A stretch of DNA of 45,520 nucleotides, from the IMG/VR virus record IMGVR_UViG_2579778748_000005, one strand, 5' to 3'. The notes beneath the pieces are model-generated. The model did not search any database, had not been told where the DNA came from, and saw only the letters and a list, made by a program, of their open reading frames with translations. The first letter of the stretch is position 1, and each line of letters starts with the position of its first letter. The position numbers and the translations under genes were made by a program. This DNA is from a virus (taxonomy: Duplodnaviria > Heunggongvirae > Uroviricota > Caudoviricetes). Positions 27,290-45,520 of the stretch are shown here, in pieces.

Positions 27290-27988
27290 TTACTGCGAAA
27301 GTTTGTTAATGGAAAGGAAACCGCCAAAATTAGCCACCATGCCGCGCATCTCACACCCGCGCATGCACTTGCTGCATCTGTCCTTACGGATATCCGTGGT
27401 GGGGTTGTCGAACTCATCCGCCACCGCAGGACCGTTATACCCGCATTCATCTCCCCGGTAATCCCACATACAGGTGTTCGCCAGCATGATGCGACCGGGA
27501 AACAGCGCCCCGTCCGTCTCGGTCGGTGTAGCCAGCACAAACGAGGCCGTCATGGCTGTCAGCTGCGACATCTGCTCCACCACCCAGCGGTCACTCAGCT
27601 CCTGCTCCGGGTCCGCCTCCGGATTGCCCGCAACGAAATTCACCGCATCCAGAAAACGGGCATACACCCGGCGGCGGACCACCGTGGCCCCCACCAGACT
27701 CTGCAGGTCTTCCGCCATCCCGGTGACCAGACCGAACAGATTGGACACCGTCAGCGACGGTCTGGCACTGCTGCCCCGGCCGTTCATCTCAAAGCCGCTG
27801 CCGTCAATCGGGTATGCCTCATACTTACGCCCCTGCCAGGTGACCGGCTCCCCTTTTTCATTCAGCTCATTACAGAAAAAATACCGCTCACCACCCTGTA
27901 CCGTCAGGTCGATTTCCCAGAGTACCACCCGCGGTGACTGCTCTGACTTAACCGACTCGTTCAGACTTTCTTCGCGAATATCCTGCAT
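27290..27988 (-). CDS. L: Minor tail protein L, 232 aa
   Basis: Lambda order, size and cysteine cluster. Confidence 0.9.
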   Translation of the reverse strand: MQDIREESLNESVKSEQSPRVVLWEIDLTVQGGERYFFCNELNEKGEPVTWQGRKYEAYPIDGSGFEMNGRGSSARPSLTVSNLFGLVTGMAEDLQSLVGATVVRRRVYARFLDAVNFVAGNPEADPEQELSDRWVVEQMSQLTAMTASFVLATPTETDGALFPGRIMLANTCMWDYRGDECGYNGPAVADEFDNPTTDIRKDRCSKCMRGCEMRGMVANFGGFLSINKLSQ

Positions 27989-40894: not shown

Positions 40895-41375
40895 CGAGTA
40901 AATCCGGTAATTTATCCCCCGCCCGCGCACACTGATTTGCCCCCTTCGCAATAAGGGTTTTCAGATGGTCAAGATGGCGCGGTGTTAAATCAGGAAACTG
41001 TCGCTGCATGGATAAAGGGATGGAATCAAGCGTACTGGATAACGCCATTGCCAGCTTGCTGAGAGCAAAAATACAGAACCCGGTATCAATAAGTTTTCCT
41101 TTTGACACCTCATTTTTTAACTGCTGTGTAACAGCCTGTTCTGCTGTCAGTTCCCATCTGGCAATAAGCAATTTCTCCTCATAGTCGTCTTCGCTATCGC
41201 CATCAGGCACATCGTTTTTACTTCTTCTCAGATACGATATGTAAAAATCGCGCCAGGCATCCAGATCCAGTTGCCCTCGCTTATTCGATATCGGGGCACC
41301 CGGCAATTTCTGCAATCTGCGAAGCTGGCGATCGGTCAGACTTAAATGCCTGGCAACTTCAGTCTGCGTAGCCAC
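40866..41375 (-). CDS. nu1: Terminase small subunit Nu1, 169 aa (GTG start)
   Basis: C-terminal half matches lambda Nu1 (LSxQRxFP, LLxEYI); N-terminal wHTH diverged; GAGGTGAGGAG SD. Confidence 0.9.
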   Translation of the reverse strand: MATQTEVARHLSLTDRQLRRLQKLPGAPISNKRGQLDLDAWRDFYISYLRRSKNDVPDGDSEDDYEEKLLIARWELTAEQAVTQQLKNEVSKGKLIDTGFCIFALSKLAMALSSTLDSIPLSMQRQFPDLTPRHLDHLKTLIAKGANQCARAGDKLPDLLDEYIRATTE

Positions 41376-41414
41376 TCCTCACCTCGCAAAAACTCTCACT
41401 TCACAATCACAACA

Positions 41415-41558
41415 AAACCGGTCATGTCCGGCTTACATGTCTATTTTTTGTGCATGCCCGGTTCACAGAAGACCTCTTTTTTTATTTTTCATATAGTTAA
41501 CTTGAAGAGAAACCGGACATGGTTCCCGGAAAATTTTCATAAATAGCGAAAACCCGCG
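41415..41558 (-). promoter_or_regulatory. Prophage cosB (CCGGACATG-type R sites and AT-rich bend)
   Basis: Motifs seen between cosN and the nu1 start. Confidence 0.65.
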
Positions 41559-41570
41559 AGGTCGCCGCCC
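41559..41570 (-). other. Prophage cosN, GGGCGGCGACCT
   Basis: Identical to the recalled lambda 12-nt cohesive end; flanking sequence matches the lambda cos region. Confidence 0.85.
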
Positions 41571-41718
41571 CGTAACCTGTTGGATCGACGGAAAGGACCC
41601 GAAAACGAGAATAATTATCACTTACAGCAAGAATCGAATCTGATCTATTATGGTGCTTGCTATTATGTGCCGGCACAAGTGCGTCGTTTACCGTCATTTC
41701 ACACAGAGGCATCATCAA

Positions 41719-41970
41719 ATGAAAATCAGAAATATTCTCGCTATCTCCCTTGCAACATCATCCTTCAGTTGCCTGGCATTTAAATCCTCGCCCAATGTGC
41801 TACCAGGACCAACGAATCAACTAACTGCGGTAGAAAGTAAAATTATCGGACATTTTTATGCCCCACACAGTGCATTACCCGGAACAACCATCACAGGGAC
41901 ATGTGACGCCTCCCCCGTCCCGGGATGCACCTGTCCGTTTTGTACTATGCTGCGTAGCCAAAACCGATAA
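41719..41970 (+). CDS. Predicted secreted cysteine-containing small protein, 83 aa (moron)
   Basis: Sec-type signal peptide MKIRNILAISLATSSFSCLA; mature part has 4 Cys (TGTCDASPVPGCTCPFC); antisense to the late operon. Confidence 0.5.
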   Translation: MKIRNILAISLATSSFSCLAFKSSPNVLPGPTNQLTAVESKIIGHFYAPHSALPGTTITGTCDASPVPGCTCPFCTMLRSQNR

Positions 41971-42031
41971 CATCCGCATTTACCTGGTATTACATGATGA
42001 GTTCACGCAGCGACTGATAGAGGAAGGAAAG

Positions 42032-42211
42032 ATGGTTAGTAAAAGCAAGGCGCATTGCCGCCGCATGCTGCAGGCATTGCAACAGACGAGAGCAGGTATT
42101 TTTGACCAGTTGGAAAACTGCCAGCATACTTTGCCCGAGTATATCGCCATCTCATCGGAAACCAGTGCAACTCTTATTCATCGGGTTCCACCAGAGAAAA
42201 AGAAGAAATGA
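42032..42211 (+). CDS. Hypothetical protein, 59 aa (moron)
   Basis: Strong SD GAGGAAGGAAAG; followed by a GGCGTTGT...ACAACGCC hairpin. Confidence 0.4.
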   Translation: MVSKSKAHCRRMLQALQQTRAGIFDQLENCQHTLPEYIAISSETSATLIHRVPPEKKKK

Positions 42212-42333
42212 ACAGTGAGGCGTTGTGTGGCATACAACGCCTTCTTCCATCATTCCTCGTCAGCCATGACAAAAATATAACCGCTGGCTCTTTCATTTTT
42301 CTCCTGCGTCCAGCCCCTCTCTACCTGGAAGCA

Positions 42334-42660
42334 TCAAGGACGTGACGGCGTAAAGATAAATTGTCTCTTCACTCCCTGACAGGGGCGATTCTTTTCAAAT
42401 CGCCATTTCGCCATGGCCTTCACCACTTCATCACGAAACAAATTATGAGGCTCTGAGCGGAGAAAAACGATCCGTGTCACAGTCCCATCAGCACCAATAT
42501 CGAACTTAACCTCAACCAGCCCCTTGATATAATTTGCTGCAGCATATTCCGGATATCGTGGATACACCGTCACTAATTGCCGGGGCTCATCAGCTTTTTG
42601 CTGCGAGCATCCCACTGCCAGGACAGATAACAGAAAAAGTAGTAAAAGGCGTCTTTTCAT
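42334..42660 (-). CDS. Lipoprotein with TonB C-terminal-like domain, 108 aa (moron)
   Basis: Lipobox LAVGC; PRYPEYAAANYIKGLVEVKFDIGADGTVTRIVFLRSEPHNLFRDEVVKAMAKWRFE parallels the recalled TonB C-terminal domain ([57 protein letters not shown]). Confidence 0.75.
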   Translation of the reverse strand: MKRRLLLLFLLSVLAVGCSQQKADEPRQLVTVYPRYPEYAAANYIKGLVEVKFDIGADGTVTRIVFLRSEPHNLFRDEVVKAMAKWRFEKNRPCQGVKRQFIFTPSRP

Positions 42661-42971
42661 TTTTATTCCTACGGGTCTTATTCTGACAATATATCCTGTG
42701 TTCCAGACTGCCACATCACCACATCCTGTGCCATTATCTGACTCACATTACATACATCGCATCGGGATACAGTAGTAGCACTTTCTGTAATACAGCTTCC
42801 TGTTTCTTCCACCATCGCACCGGGATAAACCCGCGAATCATTAACGCGGTAAAAAACCCGGTGTGCATCGTTTTTAATTATCCCCGCACACTCGCGCAGA
42901 GGAGTCTCCCTGTCGGGCTGCGGTCTCTGTTAATGAGGGAATATAGCGACGATACGGCGCATCAACAAAAC

Positions 42972-43445
42972 TTATTTCAGGCACTGAGTGCGGATATAGT
43001 CCTGTGCCCCTTCCAGTTGCTTGTGCATCGTCATCAGCCGCTCTCTGAGGGTGAAATAATCCCGTGTAACGGTGTCTGCCAGTTGGGGGCCGGTTGCATT
43101 ATCCACGCCGGAGGTGGTGGGGGCTTCACGCACGGAGCCTGGACAGGTGGCGTTGATCCGCAGGCGCTTACGACCAGCGGCAACGTCAGCGCGAAGAGTT
43201 TCATTTTCAGCTCTCGCATCGGCTAATTCCCTCGAGTATTTTGCATCGAGCGCAGCAACATCGCGCTGGCGCACCTGCATATCAGTAATGGTTGCGTTCG
43301 CCAGCTTCAGTTCACTGGCTTTGTTATCGCGCTGCGCTTTGTAGGTAATCGCGTTATCACGGTAATGGTCTGTTGCCATCCACAGCGCACCACAGGCCAC
43401 CAGCAGAATAACGATAAACGCGGAAAGCATTCGGTTTATGTTCAC
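42972..43445 (-). CDS. Rz: Spanin Rz (i-spanin), 157 aa
   Basis: [14 protein letters not shown]...DVAAGRKRL matches recalled lambda Rz. Confidence 0.9.
43034..43219 (-). CDS. Rz1: Spanin Rz1 (o-spanin lipoprotein), embedded in Rz in the +1 frame
   Basis: Lipobox VVSAC and [14 protein letters not shown] motif as in lambda Rz1. Confidence 0.8.
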
Positions 43446-43573
43446 CCCAGCAACCCCGACGAAGACAACATCATCCAGGCCATGGAAAGAAAAAGAGCAA
43501 CCAGCATTAGTGAAAATGAAATGCCGACAATTACACAGAGGATCTTCGCCAGCGTTATGAGTTTGTCTGACAT
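43442..43573 (-). CDS. Small single-TM membrane protein, 43 aa, coupled to Rz
   Basis: GGGAGG SD; stop overlaps the Rz start codon. Confidence 0.5.
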
Positions 43574-43587
43574 GCTTAATCCTCCCT

Positions 43588-43770
43588 TCACGATTTCAAC
43601 GCAATGACCAGTTTTGCCAGCCCATACAGCATCGGGGACACAGCAACACCGACCGCCACCCACTTAATGGCAAAAGCCAGTGCTCTGCTGATGTCATCAG
43701 TTACAGGCGCTTTCAGTTCAAGGCCATTTTTCATAGTCAACCTCAACAGAATTCGTTTACACTTCGCCAT
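43588..43770 (-). CDS. Small membrane protein, 60 aa
   Basis: AAGGGAGAAC SD before ATG 43770; C-terminal hydrophobic segment. Confidence 0.5.
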
Positions 43771-43926
43771 GTTCTCCCTTGCCTTACTCAAGGTCAGAAA
43801 CACAAAACCTCGCTTGGTGCCAACAAACGGGGTTTTTACTTTTATTCACTTACGTTTCGCCAGTTCGCAGGATTTCGTGTTATCCGCCCGCGTGGCCATT
43901 CCTCATTTTTCAGCAAAATATTCTGC

Positions 43927-44460
43927 TTATCTGTCGATACCCCAGCACGCCAGCGCGCTCTCCTGGTCACGACGGGATACCTGACCGTAACAGTTGTTTG
44001 AACGAATACGGCAGTCTCTGCCACCGTCCTTAATCCACCAGCGAATCGCTTCGCAGGCACCTTTTCGATCACCAGCATTAATTCGTCTGTAAAACGTCGA
44101 CGGGAAACACTTACCGGGACCAATGTTGTACGGACAGAATGACGCGATCCCCGCTTTCTGGGGTTCGGTCAGCGGCACTCTGATGTTTTTCTCCACCCAC
44201 GCCAGCGCTTTATCACGCTCAATGGCGTTAACCTGGTCGCATTTTTCCTTCGACAACTTCATGCCCGGAACGACAGGTTTGCCATCCACCATGATGGCAC
44301 CACGGCAGATGGTCCAGATACCTGCACCATCACGGTATGCTGTGGTGTGCTTGCCTTCCTTTTCATCCAGAAACTGGTCGAGAATGTCAGGCGCAGGCGC
44401 ACCAGCGGCAATCAGCGCCAGAACGGCAGCCGACAGGCCGTATTTGATTTTGGTGTTCAT
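43927..44460 (-). CDS. R: SAR-endolysin (phage lysozyme R), 177 aa
   Basis: N-terminal signal-anchor KYGLSAAVLALIAAGA and a lysozyme body matching Stx-phage-type R as recalled. Confidence 0.92.
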   Translation of the reverse strand: MNTKIKYGLSAAVLALIAAGAPAPDILDQFLDEKEGKHTTAYRDGAGIWTICRGAIMVDGKPVVPGMKLSKEKCDQVNAIERDKALAWVEKNIRVPLTEPQKAGIASFCPYNIGPGKCFPSTFYRRINAGDRKGACEAIRWWIKDGGRDCRIRSNNCYGQVSRRDQESALACWGIDR

Positions 44461-44496
44461 GGATATATTAAATATTCAGCCGCTGTCCCTGGCCCA

Positions 44497-45387
44497 CTAA
44501 ATACGCACTTTAAGATAAGTCAGCCCCGGATGAAGCCAGTAAGCCGGCACTTTTTTAAAGGGTGGAGTATTAAAATCACGAAGAAGAGCCTCCCGCACAA
44601 TTGCATCCTTATCAGCACCACTGGCCAGCGCTTCAATCTCAGCAGCTACCTGCAGATATCCCATGCAACGGCCAACGCGCTTCATCAGCCCCTGCTTTTT
44701 ATTGTTCTTCAGGTAATCAATGGCAAATTCAATGAGCTCCTCACTGTGCTGGTGCGATGGAGGTGTTACTTTCCCATTTTCTGAGATGGTTATTTTCCCA
44801 GCATCACCGGATACAACAAAGGATGGCCGGTTACACTCCCATTCCGGGTCACTGAAATTATCATTATGAATACTGAAACACTCTGCGAGATTTCTGCTCA
44901 TCACTTTCCGACAATAATCGTCAAACGCAGCAAACTGCTTTTCATCGCCAGAAGGCACCAATATCGACCATTTCTTATTCAGCTCAACGACGTAGCTCTC
45001 CAGTTTTTCAATACGTGATTCAACATCATCTTTTTCTGACCGCAGTGTTGACGGCGGCATCTTCAGAGAACAAGTAATTCTTCCCGGTAGCTTTCCTTTG
45101 TAGGTTATCAACACATCCTGCGCCTCTAAAATTACGGGGCGCTTTTCCGGCAACGGACCATCCCCTTCACATAACCCGGCAGCAACATCCATGAAAAACT
45201 GCTTCGCCTGCTTTTTCGCCTCAGCTTCGTAAAACTCCAGCGTGGCACCTTCAGTACGGTCAAGACTAATCGCCACATCTGGCAACAACAGCGACGCTTG
45301 CCCGTCACCTTCCGGCTTCACAGTAACAGTAACCTTATCCCCGTAATTATTTATCCCCTTAACAACCAGTTCATATTTTTTATTCAT
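44497..45387 (-). CDS. Hypothetical soluble protein, 296 aa, inserted between holin and endolysin
   Basis: GGGGAGAG SD; start lies 4 nt after the holin stop; no recognisable motifs by eye. Confidence 0.8.
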   Translation of the reverse strand: MNKKYELVVKGINNYGDKVTVTVKPEGDGQASLLLPDVAISLDRTEGATLEFYEAEAKKQAKQFFMDVAAGLCEGDGPLPEKRPVILEAQDVLITYKGKLPGRITCSLKMPPSTLRSEKDDVESRIEKLESYVVELNKKWSILVPSGDEKQFAAFDDYCRKVMSRNLAECFSIHNDNFSDPEWECNRPSFVVSGDAGKITISENGKVTPPSHQHSEELIEFAIDYLKNNKKQGLMKRVGRCMGYLQVAAEIEALASGADKDAIVREALLRDFNTPPFKKVPAYWLHPGLTYLKVRI

Positions 45388-45391
45388 CACT

Positions 45392-45520
45392 TTACTCTCC
45401 CCGCGCCGCCTTACGCCGGTCCTCTTTGATTTTGAAATACAGGTTAGTCAGATATGTCAGCAGCCCAAACAGCAGACTCCCCAGCACGCCTATTGCCGCC
45501 CACTGAGACGGGGAAACCCT
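45392..45520 (-). CDS. S: Holin S, C-terminal part (gene runs off the window)
   Basis: Reverse translation ends ...[32 protein letters not shown], a hydrophobic segment plus charged tail. Confidence 0.75.

Follow-up and report, generated by a model that had tools for sequence, protein, structure and literature searches.

The DNA considered here, a window of 45,520 nucleotides (nt) from the virus record IMGVR_UViG_2579778748_000005 (Caudoviricetes), is a lambdoid prophage of Escherichia coli in which two small genes, termed orf60 and orf43 after the lengths of their products, lie between the gene for the endolysin R and that for the inner-membrane spanin (i-spanin) Rz. The family typified by orf60 recurs at the junction of endolysin and spanin genes in otherwise unrelated lysis cassettes, and on account of this recurrence orf60 is probably an overlooked accessory lysis gene. 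A broader and more tentative reading, to which we give somewhat less than an even chance, is that both genes encode late-expressed, non-essential accessory lysis proteins of the inner membrane. The features of the junction are the following:

43927-44460, minus strand: endolysin R, a 177-residue T4-type lysozyme (Pfam Phage_lysozyme PF00959, E = 2.8e-24; "lysozyme" in the Prokaryotic Genome Annotation Pipeline, PGAP)
43771-43926: spacer between R and orf60, 156 nt
43588-43770, minus strand: orf60, 60 residues, phrog_1115, with its ATG at 43770 behind the Shine-Dalgarno sequence AAGGGAG
43442-43573, minus strand: orf43, 43 residues, phrog_4906, with its ATG behind AGGGAGGA
42972-43445, minus strand: i-spanin Rz (Pfam Phage_lysis PF03245, E = 2e-47)
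43034-43219, minus strand: outer-membrane spanin (o-spanin) lipoprotein Rz1, nested within Rz (Pfam PF06085, E = 4.4e-20)

The initial annotation had placed two small single-transmembrane (TM) protein genes at this position, each behind a strong Shine-Dalgarno sequence and separated from R by a 155-bp spacer. The presence of two small hydrophobic-protein genes is borne out by the gene anatomy and by comparison with the Qin prophage of E. coli K-12, where rrrQ, which encodes the homologous lysozyme, and rzpQ share 4 nt and no gene intervenes; given this direct coupling, orf60 and orf43 represent an insertion relative to a simpler arrangement. Both Shine-Dalgarno sequences are likewise present, as is the spacer, albeit at 156 nt. 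The single-TM description holds for orf43, which begins 14 nt downstream of the orf60 stop and is strongly hydrophobic (best 19-residue Kyte-Doolittle mean 2.89), whereas orf60 has only a weakly hydrophobic C-terminal segment (1.88). The latter value, obtained despite two lysines inside the segment, is close to that of the weakly hydrophobic, Ala/Gly-rich N-terminal segment of R (1.74), which is probably a signal-anchor of the signal-anchor-release (SAR) type.

The most informative result concerns the genomic contexts of the orf60 family, which were obtained by tracing its distant members (40-60% identity) into their contigs. An orf60-type gene directly follows an endolysin gene, directly precedes an i-spanin gene, or does both in about 11 of 17 contexts. 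The adjacent endolysins, of five or six families in all, belong to PF00959 (two subtypes), glycoside hydrolase families GH108 and GH19 (the latter in two forms), the M15 peptidases, and one unknown type. The adjacent spanins are of three types: Rz (PF03245), DUF2514, and a further nested pair. Wherever orf60 and a spanin gene adjoin, the gap to the spanin start lies between -4 and +10 nt. The arrangements seen outside tail-gene clusters are:

Window type: R, orf60, orf43, Rz
L167 and L259: R21-like lysozyme, orf60, Rz
L257: R21-like lysozyme, orf60, DNA methylase, Rz
L264-266 and the Salmonella remnant L252: GH108 with PG_binding_3, orf60, Rz
L268 and L269: 179-residue R, orf60, Rz
L270: unassigned 140-residue protein, orf60, a different nested spanin-like pair
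L271: GH19, orf60, DUF2514 i-spanin
L260, L261 and L263: GH19 with PG_binding_1, orf60, small lipoproteins, tail sheath
phiSTEC1575-Stx2k: M15 peptidase, 93-residue open reading frame (ORF), orf60
Phage GER2: muramidase, orf60, Rz
L267: orf60, Rz

A SAR-specific, releasin-like role for orf60 was considered and rejected as unlikely, since members of the family also follow non-SAR endolysins of the GH108 and GH19 families.

That orf60 is a protein-coding gene under purifying selection is clear from its comparison with the Salmonella copy L167, which gives a ratio of nonsynonymous to synonymous substitution rates (dN/dS) of 0.22, falling to 0.145 after codon 12, with an in-frame dS of 0.60 against off-frame values of 0.11-0.17. 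It matches phrog_1115, a PHROG profile without a function label, along its entire length (hmmscan E = 3.7e-42, residues 1-60 on profile positions 8-67 of 67), and is recorded as a "hypothetical protein" in GenBank/RefSeq (the accessions for orf60 and orf43 are WP_001446668 and WP_001280932). ORFs of these two lengths are not improbable by chance at the given composition (P = 0.13 and 0.06); it is thus their recurrence rather than their length, namely the PHROG matches, the occurrence in 989 of 5426 genomes detailed below, and the dN/dS of orf60, that argues for both being real genes. Two plus-strand antisense ORFs (43365-43607 and 43604-43984) were rejected as genes, being broken in phage 933W, and the excess of synonymous-site change falls in the sense frame of orf60.

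The orf60 protein combines a basic N-terminal helix, a conserved internal methionine (Met13) that opens an MKNGLE-APVT motif, and the weakly hydrophobic C-terminal helix; an AlphaFold2 model places helices at residues 2-14 and 23-59 with a mean predicted local distance difference test (pLDDT) score of 75. The family consensus, (M-x-K/N-Y-K/R-R-I-L-L/M-R-L-T/S)-M-K-N-G-L-E-x-D-A-P-V-T-x-E-I-S, is followed by a hydrophobic stretch with Y-G-x-A-x-L and by C-termini of the form KS, K or RWW. A second in-frame ATG at 43734, which corresponds to the internal methionine, stands behind GAGG and would yield a 48-residue form. In most contexts the first start (ATG or GTG) is found at position -36, exactly 12 codons before the invariant methionine, and in several contexts stop codons occur just upstream of it; given this fixed spacing and these upstream stops, the 60-residue form is probably real. 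The internal ATG with its GAGG is itself kept in nearly all contexts and may give rise to the second, 48-residue form.

The orf60 genes are further accompanied by a conserved set of predicted non-coding elements, which in the window are:

43798-43841, both strands: bidirectional intrinsic-terminator-like hairpin with A-tract, G+C stem and T-tract, recovered in a terminator scan
43734-43763, plus strand: predicted antisense promoter within orf60 codons 3-13, with -35 TAGTCA (43734-43739), an 18-nt spacer, and -10 TACACT (43758-43763)
43770-43837, plus strand: putative cis-antisense RNA (about 68 nt) that would begin close to the first orf60 start, span the first Shine-Dalgarno sequence, and end at the T-run of the terminator

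The predicted folding energy of the hairpin is -12 kcal/mol for the minus strand, -12.7 kcal/mol for the plus strand, and stronger still (-18 to -22 kcal/mol) in related copies. In every orf60-type copy examined, including those in tail-gene clusters, such a hairpin lies 64-130 nt upstream of the internal methionine. Since the spacer between R and ant in 933W does not contain it, this terminator is part of the orf60 module rather than of R. The antisense promoter-like site is found at a fixed offset in 15 of 17 contexts, with scores of 8-10 out of 12, and takes the general form of a -35 T[A/G]G[T/A]CA, an 18-nt spacer of variable sequence, and a -10 TATACT or TATAAT. Members of the L163 and L165 subfamily instead have a shifted -35 (TTGGCC or TTTGCC) at 16-nt spacing, and the copy in the window has a weaker -10, TACACT, owing to a Cys4 allele, the common Tyr4 allele reading TATACT. 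The predicted transcripts measure 61-99 nt and end at an intrinsic terminator in each of the 16 contexts tested; a consensus fold from seven contexts consists of a stem-loop with an invariant stem and variable loop, an A-rich linker, and the terminator. This conserved architecture suggests a cis-antisense RNA of 61–99 nt that would cover the first ribosome-binding site of orf60. An Rfam scan of positions 41000-45520 at E <= 1 gave no match, and the small RNAs reported from enterohaemorrhagic E. coli (Tree 2014; Pas sRNAs) do not map to the R-Rz interval but to structural operons or to the region upstream of the holin. On the sense strand, a consensus scan of the window and three related loci recovered no sigma-70-like promoter between terminator and orf60. 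A candidate built on a TATAAA inside orf60 was rejected because it has no acceptable -35 at 16-18 nt.

These elements bring into view a different account, distinctly unlikely in our estimate, according to which orf60 and its antisense RNA form a selfish module resembling type I toxin-antitoxin systems or sar/ant, in which a constitutive cis-antisense RNA would restrain a small toxic membrane peptide and which would insert wherever late-operon junctions are permissive. Such an account would explain the size and character of the product, since 43 residues and 48 or 60 residues with hydrophobic helices fall within the range of type I toxins (up to 60 residues). It would also accommodate the near-fixed antisense promoter-like element, with its conserved hexamers, its 18-nt (or 16-nt) spacing and a spacer of variable sequence, the bidirectional terminator that antisense transcription would meet after 61-99 nt, the extension of the predicted RNA over the first Shine-Dalgarno sequence and start codon, and the movement of the whole as one unit into unrelated genomic surroundings. 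The same element is nevertheless open to another explanation: the two hexamers coincide with the conserved codons for KYK and L-T/S-M, so that promoter and coding constraint are inseparable and selection on the protein alone could keep them. Moreover, the four loci scanned lack the promoter that a toxin gene of this type should possess, the -10 of the window is weakened, no Rfam family is matched, and G-U versus C-A mismatches in the leader structure are about equally frequent each way and favour neither strand. The suggestion in the initial annotation of a small membrane toxin module is partly supported by the conserved bidirectional terminator and the predicted antisense promoter; a toxin promoter was not found.

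The cassette is widespread in E. coli. The 531-nt block from R to Rz is covered to at least 80% in 989 of 5426 complete genomes, 420 records match it at 99% identity or more, and it also occurs in the plaque-forming phages PhiR12_1 to PhiR12_5 and PhiR5_2 with 89–95% identity over R–Rz. Of these phages, PhiR12_1 and PhiR5_2 grow on K-12; their nucleotide identity amounts to 92–95% over R–Rz, and for PhiR5_2 to 98% over orf60–orf43. Some 226 fetched loci in which R and Rz both occur, drawn as 80-locus samples and including many duplicates, showed the arrangements R-orf60-orf43-Rz as in the window, R-ant-orf43-Rz in 933W and most Shiga toxin (Stx) phages, and R-orf60-Rz in Salmonella and some E. 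coli. Further layouts are R-orf60-orf43-orf60'-Rz, R-orf60'-orf43-Rz, and R-orf47-orf43-orf60'-Rz. Irrespective of whether it follows orf60, ant or a 47-residue ORF, orf43 lies just upstream of Rz in approximately 220 of these loci, and where the two do not adjoin a truncated orf60 copy intervenes. On the whole, these arrangements indicate that orf60 and orf43 are independent mobile modules.

The orf60 family is small and enterobacterial, as a profile search of 1.8 billion representative proteins recovered only 21 relatives. An orf60 profile found no relative in a set comprising one genome per species, from which it follows that species reference genomes lack the family and that variable prophages carry it.

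Some loci (L143, L131) contain a partial second copy of the 3' half of orf60 after orf43, or that half alone before orf43. Such partial copies, which are signs of recombination within the module, yield database proteins of 71-90 residues with unrelated N-termini (P0079-P0100; phrog_3246). The orf60-type genes are also often paired with a second small hydrophobic ORF (L085 2355-2498, L251 639-827, L255 597-737, L165 2805-2999), among them a 47-residue "NWKFLLVW...LIVAIKG" protein, a 46-residue one ending in AAIRWW, and a 64-residue paralogue. Several of these partners share with orf60 a C-terminal A-I/L-K/R-(S/G/WW) ending, and orf60 and its partners may constitute a wider superfamily of tandem tail-anchored peptides. 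A degraded prophage remnant in Salmonella chromosomes (L252-L254), located beside sopD and an Abhydrolase_2 gene, retains only Rz/Rz1, an orf60-like sequence of 49 residues, an IS110 element, and a DUF4222 gene. Since the 49-residue sequence is listed in 1647 blocks of the contig collection, the remnant has apparently become fixed in one lineage of Salmonella.

The second gene, orf43, matches the likewise unlabelled phrog_4906 over its whole length (hmmscan E = 2.1e-23, residues 1-43 on profile positions 7-49 of 49); a sub-threshold match to DUF3930 (E = 0.08) was rejected as chance. Residues D3, K4 and K10 precede a TM segment of about 26 residues, which predicts a single-pass protein with its N-terminus inside. 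Its homologues are confined to E. coli and Shigella, apart from one Citrobacter match. A 44-residue homologue (MISDKLITLVKSLCVLVGISFLVMLVAIFFSTAWRVLTLSGLVG) lies between ant and Rz of 933W at NC_000924 27438-27570 (about 27435-27569 by positions 2498-2632 of the locus L084), without annotation in the reference record, and the re-annotation of EDL933 lists the 933W-type gene as EDL933_1392 (PMC4765031 supplement).

The relation of orf43 to Rz depends on where the latter begins. At this point 933W reads GGGGTGAAAGAT ATG AAC CGG GTG, whereas the window reads GGGGTGAAC ATA AAC CGA ATG, the start codon of the 933W type having been mutated. Two candidate starts are left in the window: a GTG at 43445, which overlaps the orf43 stop as GTGA, and an ATG at 43430, which is the choice of PGAP and lies 11 nt past that stop. 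The downstream ATG has no usable Shine-Dalgarno sequence and gives no N-terminal charge, while the GTG retains an N-terminal arginine ahead of the Rz TM segment as in 933W Rz and in lambda Rz. Because the 933W-type ATG is lost and the GTG keeps this arginine, Rz likely starts at GTG 43445. The overlap of orf43 with the Rz start noted in the initial annotation thus holds for the GTG start and fails for the ATG of PGAP. With the GTG start, we infer from the GTGA overlap that translation of Rz would be coupled to that of orf43 by termination and reinitiation. In 933W, Rz has its own ATG and a GGGGTG ribosome-binding site, and the gap from orf43 is 7 nt. In PhiR12_1 (L001, PV340549.1; 3591-3998) and PhiR5_2 (L002, PV340546.1; 3555-3962), Rz is annotated at only 408 nt. 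These calls begin about 63 nt past the orf43 stop and would lose the TM segment, which probably reflects a mis-called start.

Taken as accessory lysis genes, orf60 and orf43 could act as follows. Both modules would have settled in the junction of endolysin and i-spanin genes of the late operon. As no sense promoter is detectable, they are most likely co-transcribed with the lysis genes by an antiterminated late RNA polymerase that passes the bidirectional terminator before orf60. From orf60 would be made a tail-anchored, weakly hydrophobic inner-membrane protein, possibly in 60- and 48-residue forms, and from orf43 a strongly hydrophobic single-pass protein with its N-terminus inside, whose termination at GTGA would hand ribosomes over to the Rz start. 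As infection ends, the two proteins would adjust when, or how efficiently, the steps from holin to spanin proceed, and the terminator and predicted cis-antisense RNA would hold the long form of orf60 off, and hence silent in the lysogen, until late transcription. This resembles the lysis-timing modulators proposed in the initial annotation, a proposal indirectly supported by the recurrence of the orf60 family at the junction across endolysin and spanin families and by the nearly constant position of orf43 at the Rz start. In this account gene anatomy, synteny, conservation and distribution, and the coding signal of orf60 are observed, whereas expression time, topology in the membrane, coupling to Rz, the antisense RNA, and any part played in lysis are inferred. 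A bolder version, which we regard as unlikely, would see in the orf60 family an undescribed fifth lysis-cassette element composed of a terminator, a dual-start gene for a tail-anchored protein, and an antisense RNA masking the first ribosome-binding site, which would set the timing or strength of envelope disruption whatever the endolysin or spanin family, with orf43 as an Escherichia-specific partner that gates Rz translation.

Several observations weigh against assigning the two genes to lysis. Five or six orf60-type contexts lie in tail-gene clusters far from lysis genes, as would be expected of a generic moron. Non-SAR types occur among the endolysins linked to orf60, and the accompanying spanins come from unrelated families, which counts against a specific protein partner. 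The lysis cassette of K-12 Qin contains neither gene, so that neither is required, and the lambda cassette is equally without them. Searches of Pfam, NCBIfam, PADLOC, and PDB sequences matched neither ORF to a holin, antiholin, releasin or any other family. As for orf43, its comparison with 933W gives a dN/dS of 0.41 without third-position excess (differences by codon position 10/6/10), a test of ORF retention is not significant (P ~0.18), and its first 75 nt (43499-43573) are near-invariant at the nucleotide level rather than codon by codon, while the flanks (ant or orf60 upstream, and the downstream sequence) differ by 20-30%. Finally, a literature search recovered neither an experiment nor an expression dataset on either ORF, the sole trace being EDL933_1392, the 933W-type orf43, which serves as an annotated control in the supplement of Neuhaus 2016 (PMC4765031); nothing relevant was found on genes between R and Rz or on the orf60 and orf43 peptides. 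To these points it may be added that neither ORF has a PHROG match in the lysis category, a periplasmic domain or a lipobox such as a spanin would show, or a charged C-terminal tail of the holin type (orf60 ends in LVIALKS and orf43 in SSSGLLG).

The peculiar conservation of orf43 raises the alternative that it is functionless as a protein and serves as an upstream ORF or recombination linker delivering ribosomes to Rz, in which case orf60 could still be functional; we consider this improbable. The codon statistics just given agree with it, as do the polymorphic sites by codon position (15/10/18), and the near-invariant 75 nt between divergent flanks look like a mosaic junction, though they could also represent an RNA element or a recent sweep. 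The constant position by Rz (a 4-nt overlap in the window, a 7-nt gap in 933W), the narrow range in E. coli and Shigella, and the frameshifted variants present in databases fit in the same way. Set against this are the 16 distinct nucleotide alleles among the fetched phage loci, all 16 of them intact with identical length and stop, the strong Shine-Dalgarno sequence, and a very hydrophobic TM segment in which substitutions are conservative and D3, K4, V14, G17, S19, and F20 are invariant. Furthermore, the independent ATG and GGGGTG of 933W Rz would make coupling needless there, yet the ORF is kept. Accordingly, orf43 is probably a gene, with support less secure than that for orf60.

The wider surroundings bear on a further alternative. 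In the window, the minus strand carries in order the genes for a class II holin, a DUF1327 protein, the lysozyme R, orf60, orf43, Rz/Rz1, and a lipoprotein with a TonB_C domain, of which those outside the R-Rz interval are:

45392 to beyond 45520, minus strand: class II holin gene, 3' end
44497-45390, minus strand: DUF1327/YdfR-like gene (Pfam), 297 residues, phrog_1085, between holin and R
42334-42714, minus strand: lipoprotein with a TonB C-terminal domain, just downstream of Rz/Rz1 (Pfam PF03544; "TonB family protein" in PGAP)

All three junctions of this lysis cassette, namely S-R, R-Rz, and Rz-terminase, thereby hold cargo. The slot between holin and R in K-12 Qin carries the 103-residue ydfR where the window has the 297-residue DUF1327 gene. 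The best PHROG match of the TonB_C lipoprotein is phrog_1267, "Rz-like spanin", an apparent mislabel owing to gene neighbourhood. The orf60-type genes within tail-gene clusters are placed as follows:

L163, L164, L165 and L256: after tail fibres
L258: between tail tube and chaperone
L251: between chaperone and tape measure

The orf60 module is thus mobile and not strictly tied to lysis genes, yet it is strikingly frequent at the junction of endolysin and spanin genes. It is conceivable, if rather unlikely, that both genes are morons benefiting the lysogen, for instance by superinfection exclusion in the manner of HK97 gp15 or P22 SieA, and that they reside between R and Rz merely because this junction tolerates insertions. 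The several late-operon positions of orf60, among them the three tail-gene placements just listed, agree with this explanation, as does the insertion of both genes between genes that adjoin in related phages, at a slot that elsewhere bears other cargo (ant in 933W, a DNA methylase in L257). The inserts at the S-R and Rz-terminase junctions of the window point the same way, and both proteins are small and membrane-directed. Known exclusion proteins share these two properties. The explanation fares less well on expression and position. A moron gene should be expressed from the repressed prophage, but no sense promoter was found for it. The terminator lies upstream of orf60 instead of downstream, and the following gene abuts or overlaps; this upstream terminator, together with the predicted antisense RNA over the ribosome-binding site, would suppress lysogenic expression. 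There is no PADLOC match, and the tight junction with the spanin start in most contexts and the location of about 11 of 17 contexts in lysis cassettes assembled from different parts also count against it.

The textbook scheme of lysis by phages of Gram-negative bacteria comprises holin, endolysin, and spanin. Studies of the Mu releasin (PMC9239132) and of Lcc6 of LambdaSo (bioRxiv 10.1101/2024.01.23.576932) have recently shown that lysis can also require extra small membrane proteins. Both of the present ORFs were already known as hypothetical proteins in databases, whereas the recurrence of orf60-type genes between endolysin and i-spanin in cassettes with different enzyme families, their conserved terminator and antisense-promoter architecture, and the unannotated orf43 before Rz in Stx phages of the 933W type are apparently undescribed in the literature and databases searched. 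Roughly one in five complete E. coli genomes carries the orf60 family, which has no assigned function although it recurs at this junction next to five or six families of endolysin. Should either ORF tune lysis, the timing of Shiga-toxin release, the outcome of prophage induction, and the engineering of lysis cassettes would be affected, and a real antisense RNA would add a layer of RNA control inside a lysis cassette. Even if both were inert cargo, annotations are corrected with respect to the Rz start, the missing ORF of 933W, and the truncated Rz calls.

With ant of 933W and other Stx phages, orf60 and orf43 share the condition of extra, mosaic, exchangeable cargo between R and Rz, which the comparison of related phages brings out. 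A promoter of its own and a terminator downstream mark the classical moron, whereas the orf60 module has an upstream terminator and no detected sense promoter. The hok/sok and P22 sar/ant systems differ from it in that it lacks a toxin promoter, an Rfam family, and homology to known toxins; they resemble it in the small hydrophobic protein that the target encodes and in the short antisense RNA, in this case predicted only, that would run from the 5' end of the gene across the ribosome-binding site to an upstream terminator.

A further parallel exists with dual-start holin genes, such as those for lambda S107/S105 and phage 21 S71/S68, in that orf60 has two conserved starts, each with a Shine-Dalgarno sequence, is located in a lysis cassette, and would, if both starts are used, gain in its long form a positively charged N-terminal extension. 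The starts of these holin genes are 2-3 codons apart as against 12 in orf60, which moreover has one weak hydrophobic segment and no charged tail.

Among small membrane proteins of phage lysis, the Mu gp25 releasin has an N-terminal TM segment with its N-terminus out and C-terminus in, followed by an anionic cytoplasmic domain of about 70 residues, and at most a few genes separate its gene from that of the endolysin (PMC9239132). Lcc6 of LambdaSo, a protein of 65 residues with an N-terminal TM segment at residues 5-22 and a 43-residue cytoplasmic tail, is required for pinholin-dependent depolarisation and acts with the pinholin and a SAR endolysin, although its gene is located far from the lysis genes (bioRxiv 10.1101/2024.01.23.576932). 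Neither orf60 nor orf43 hits DUF2730 (PF10805), the Pfam family used here as the releasin test, at E <= 1, and their layout is different. In contrast to the N-terminal TM segment and cytoplasmic tail of 43-73 residues in gp25 and Lcc6 (the latter compared by description), orf60 has the reverse order, with a soluble N-terminus and a C-terminal hydrophobic helix, and orf43 consists almost entirely of its TM segment. What unites the putative lysis proteins encoded by orf60 and orf43 with gp25 and Lcc6 is their general nature as small phage proteins of the inner membrane that are neither holin, endolysin nor spanin.

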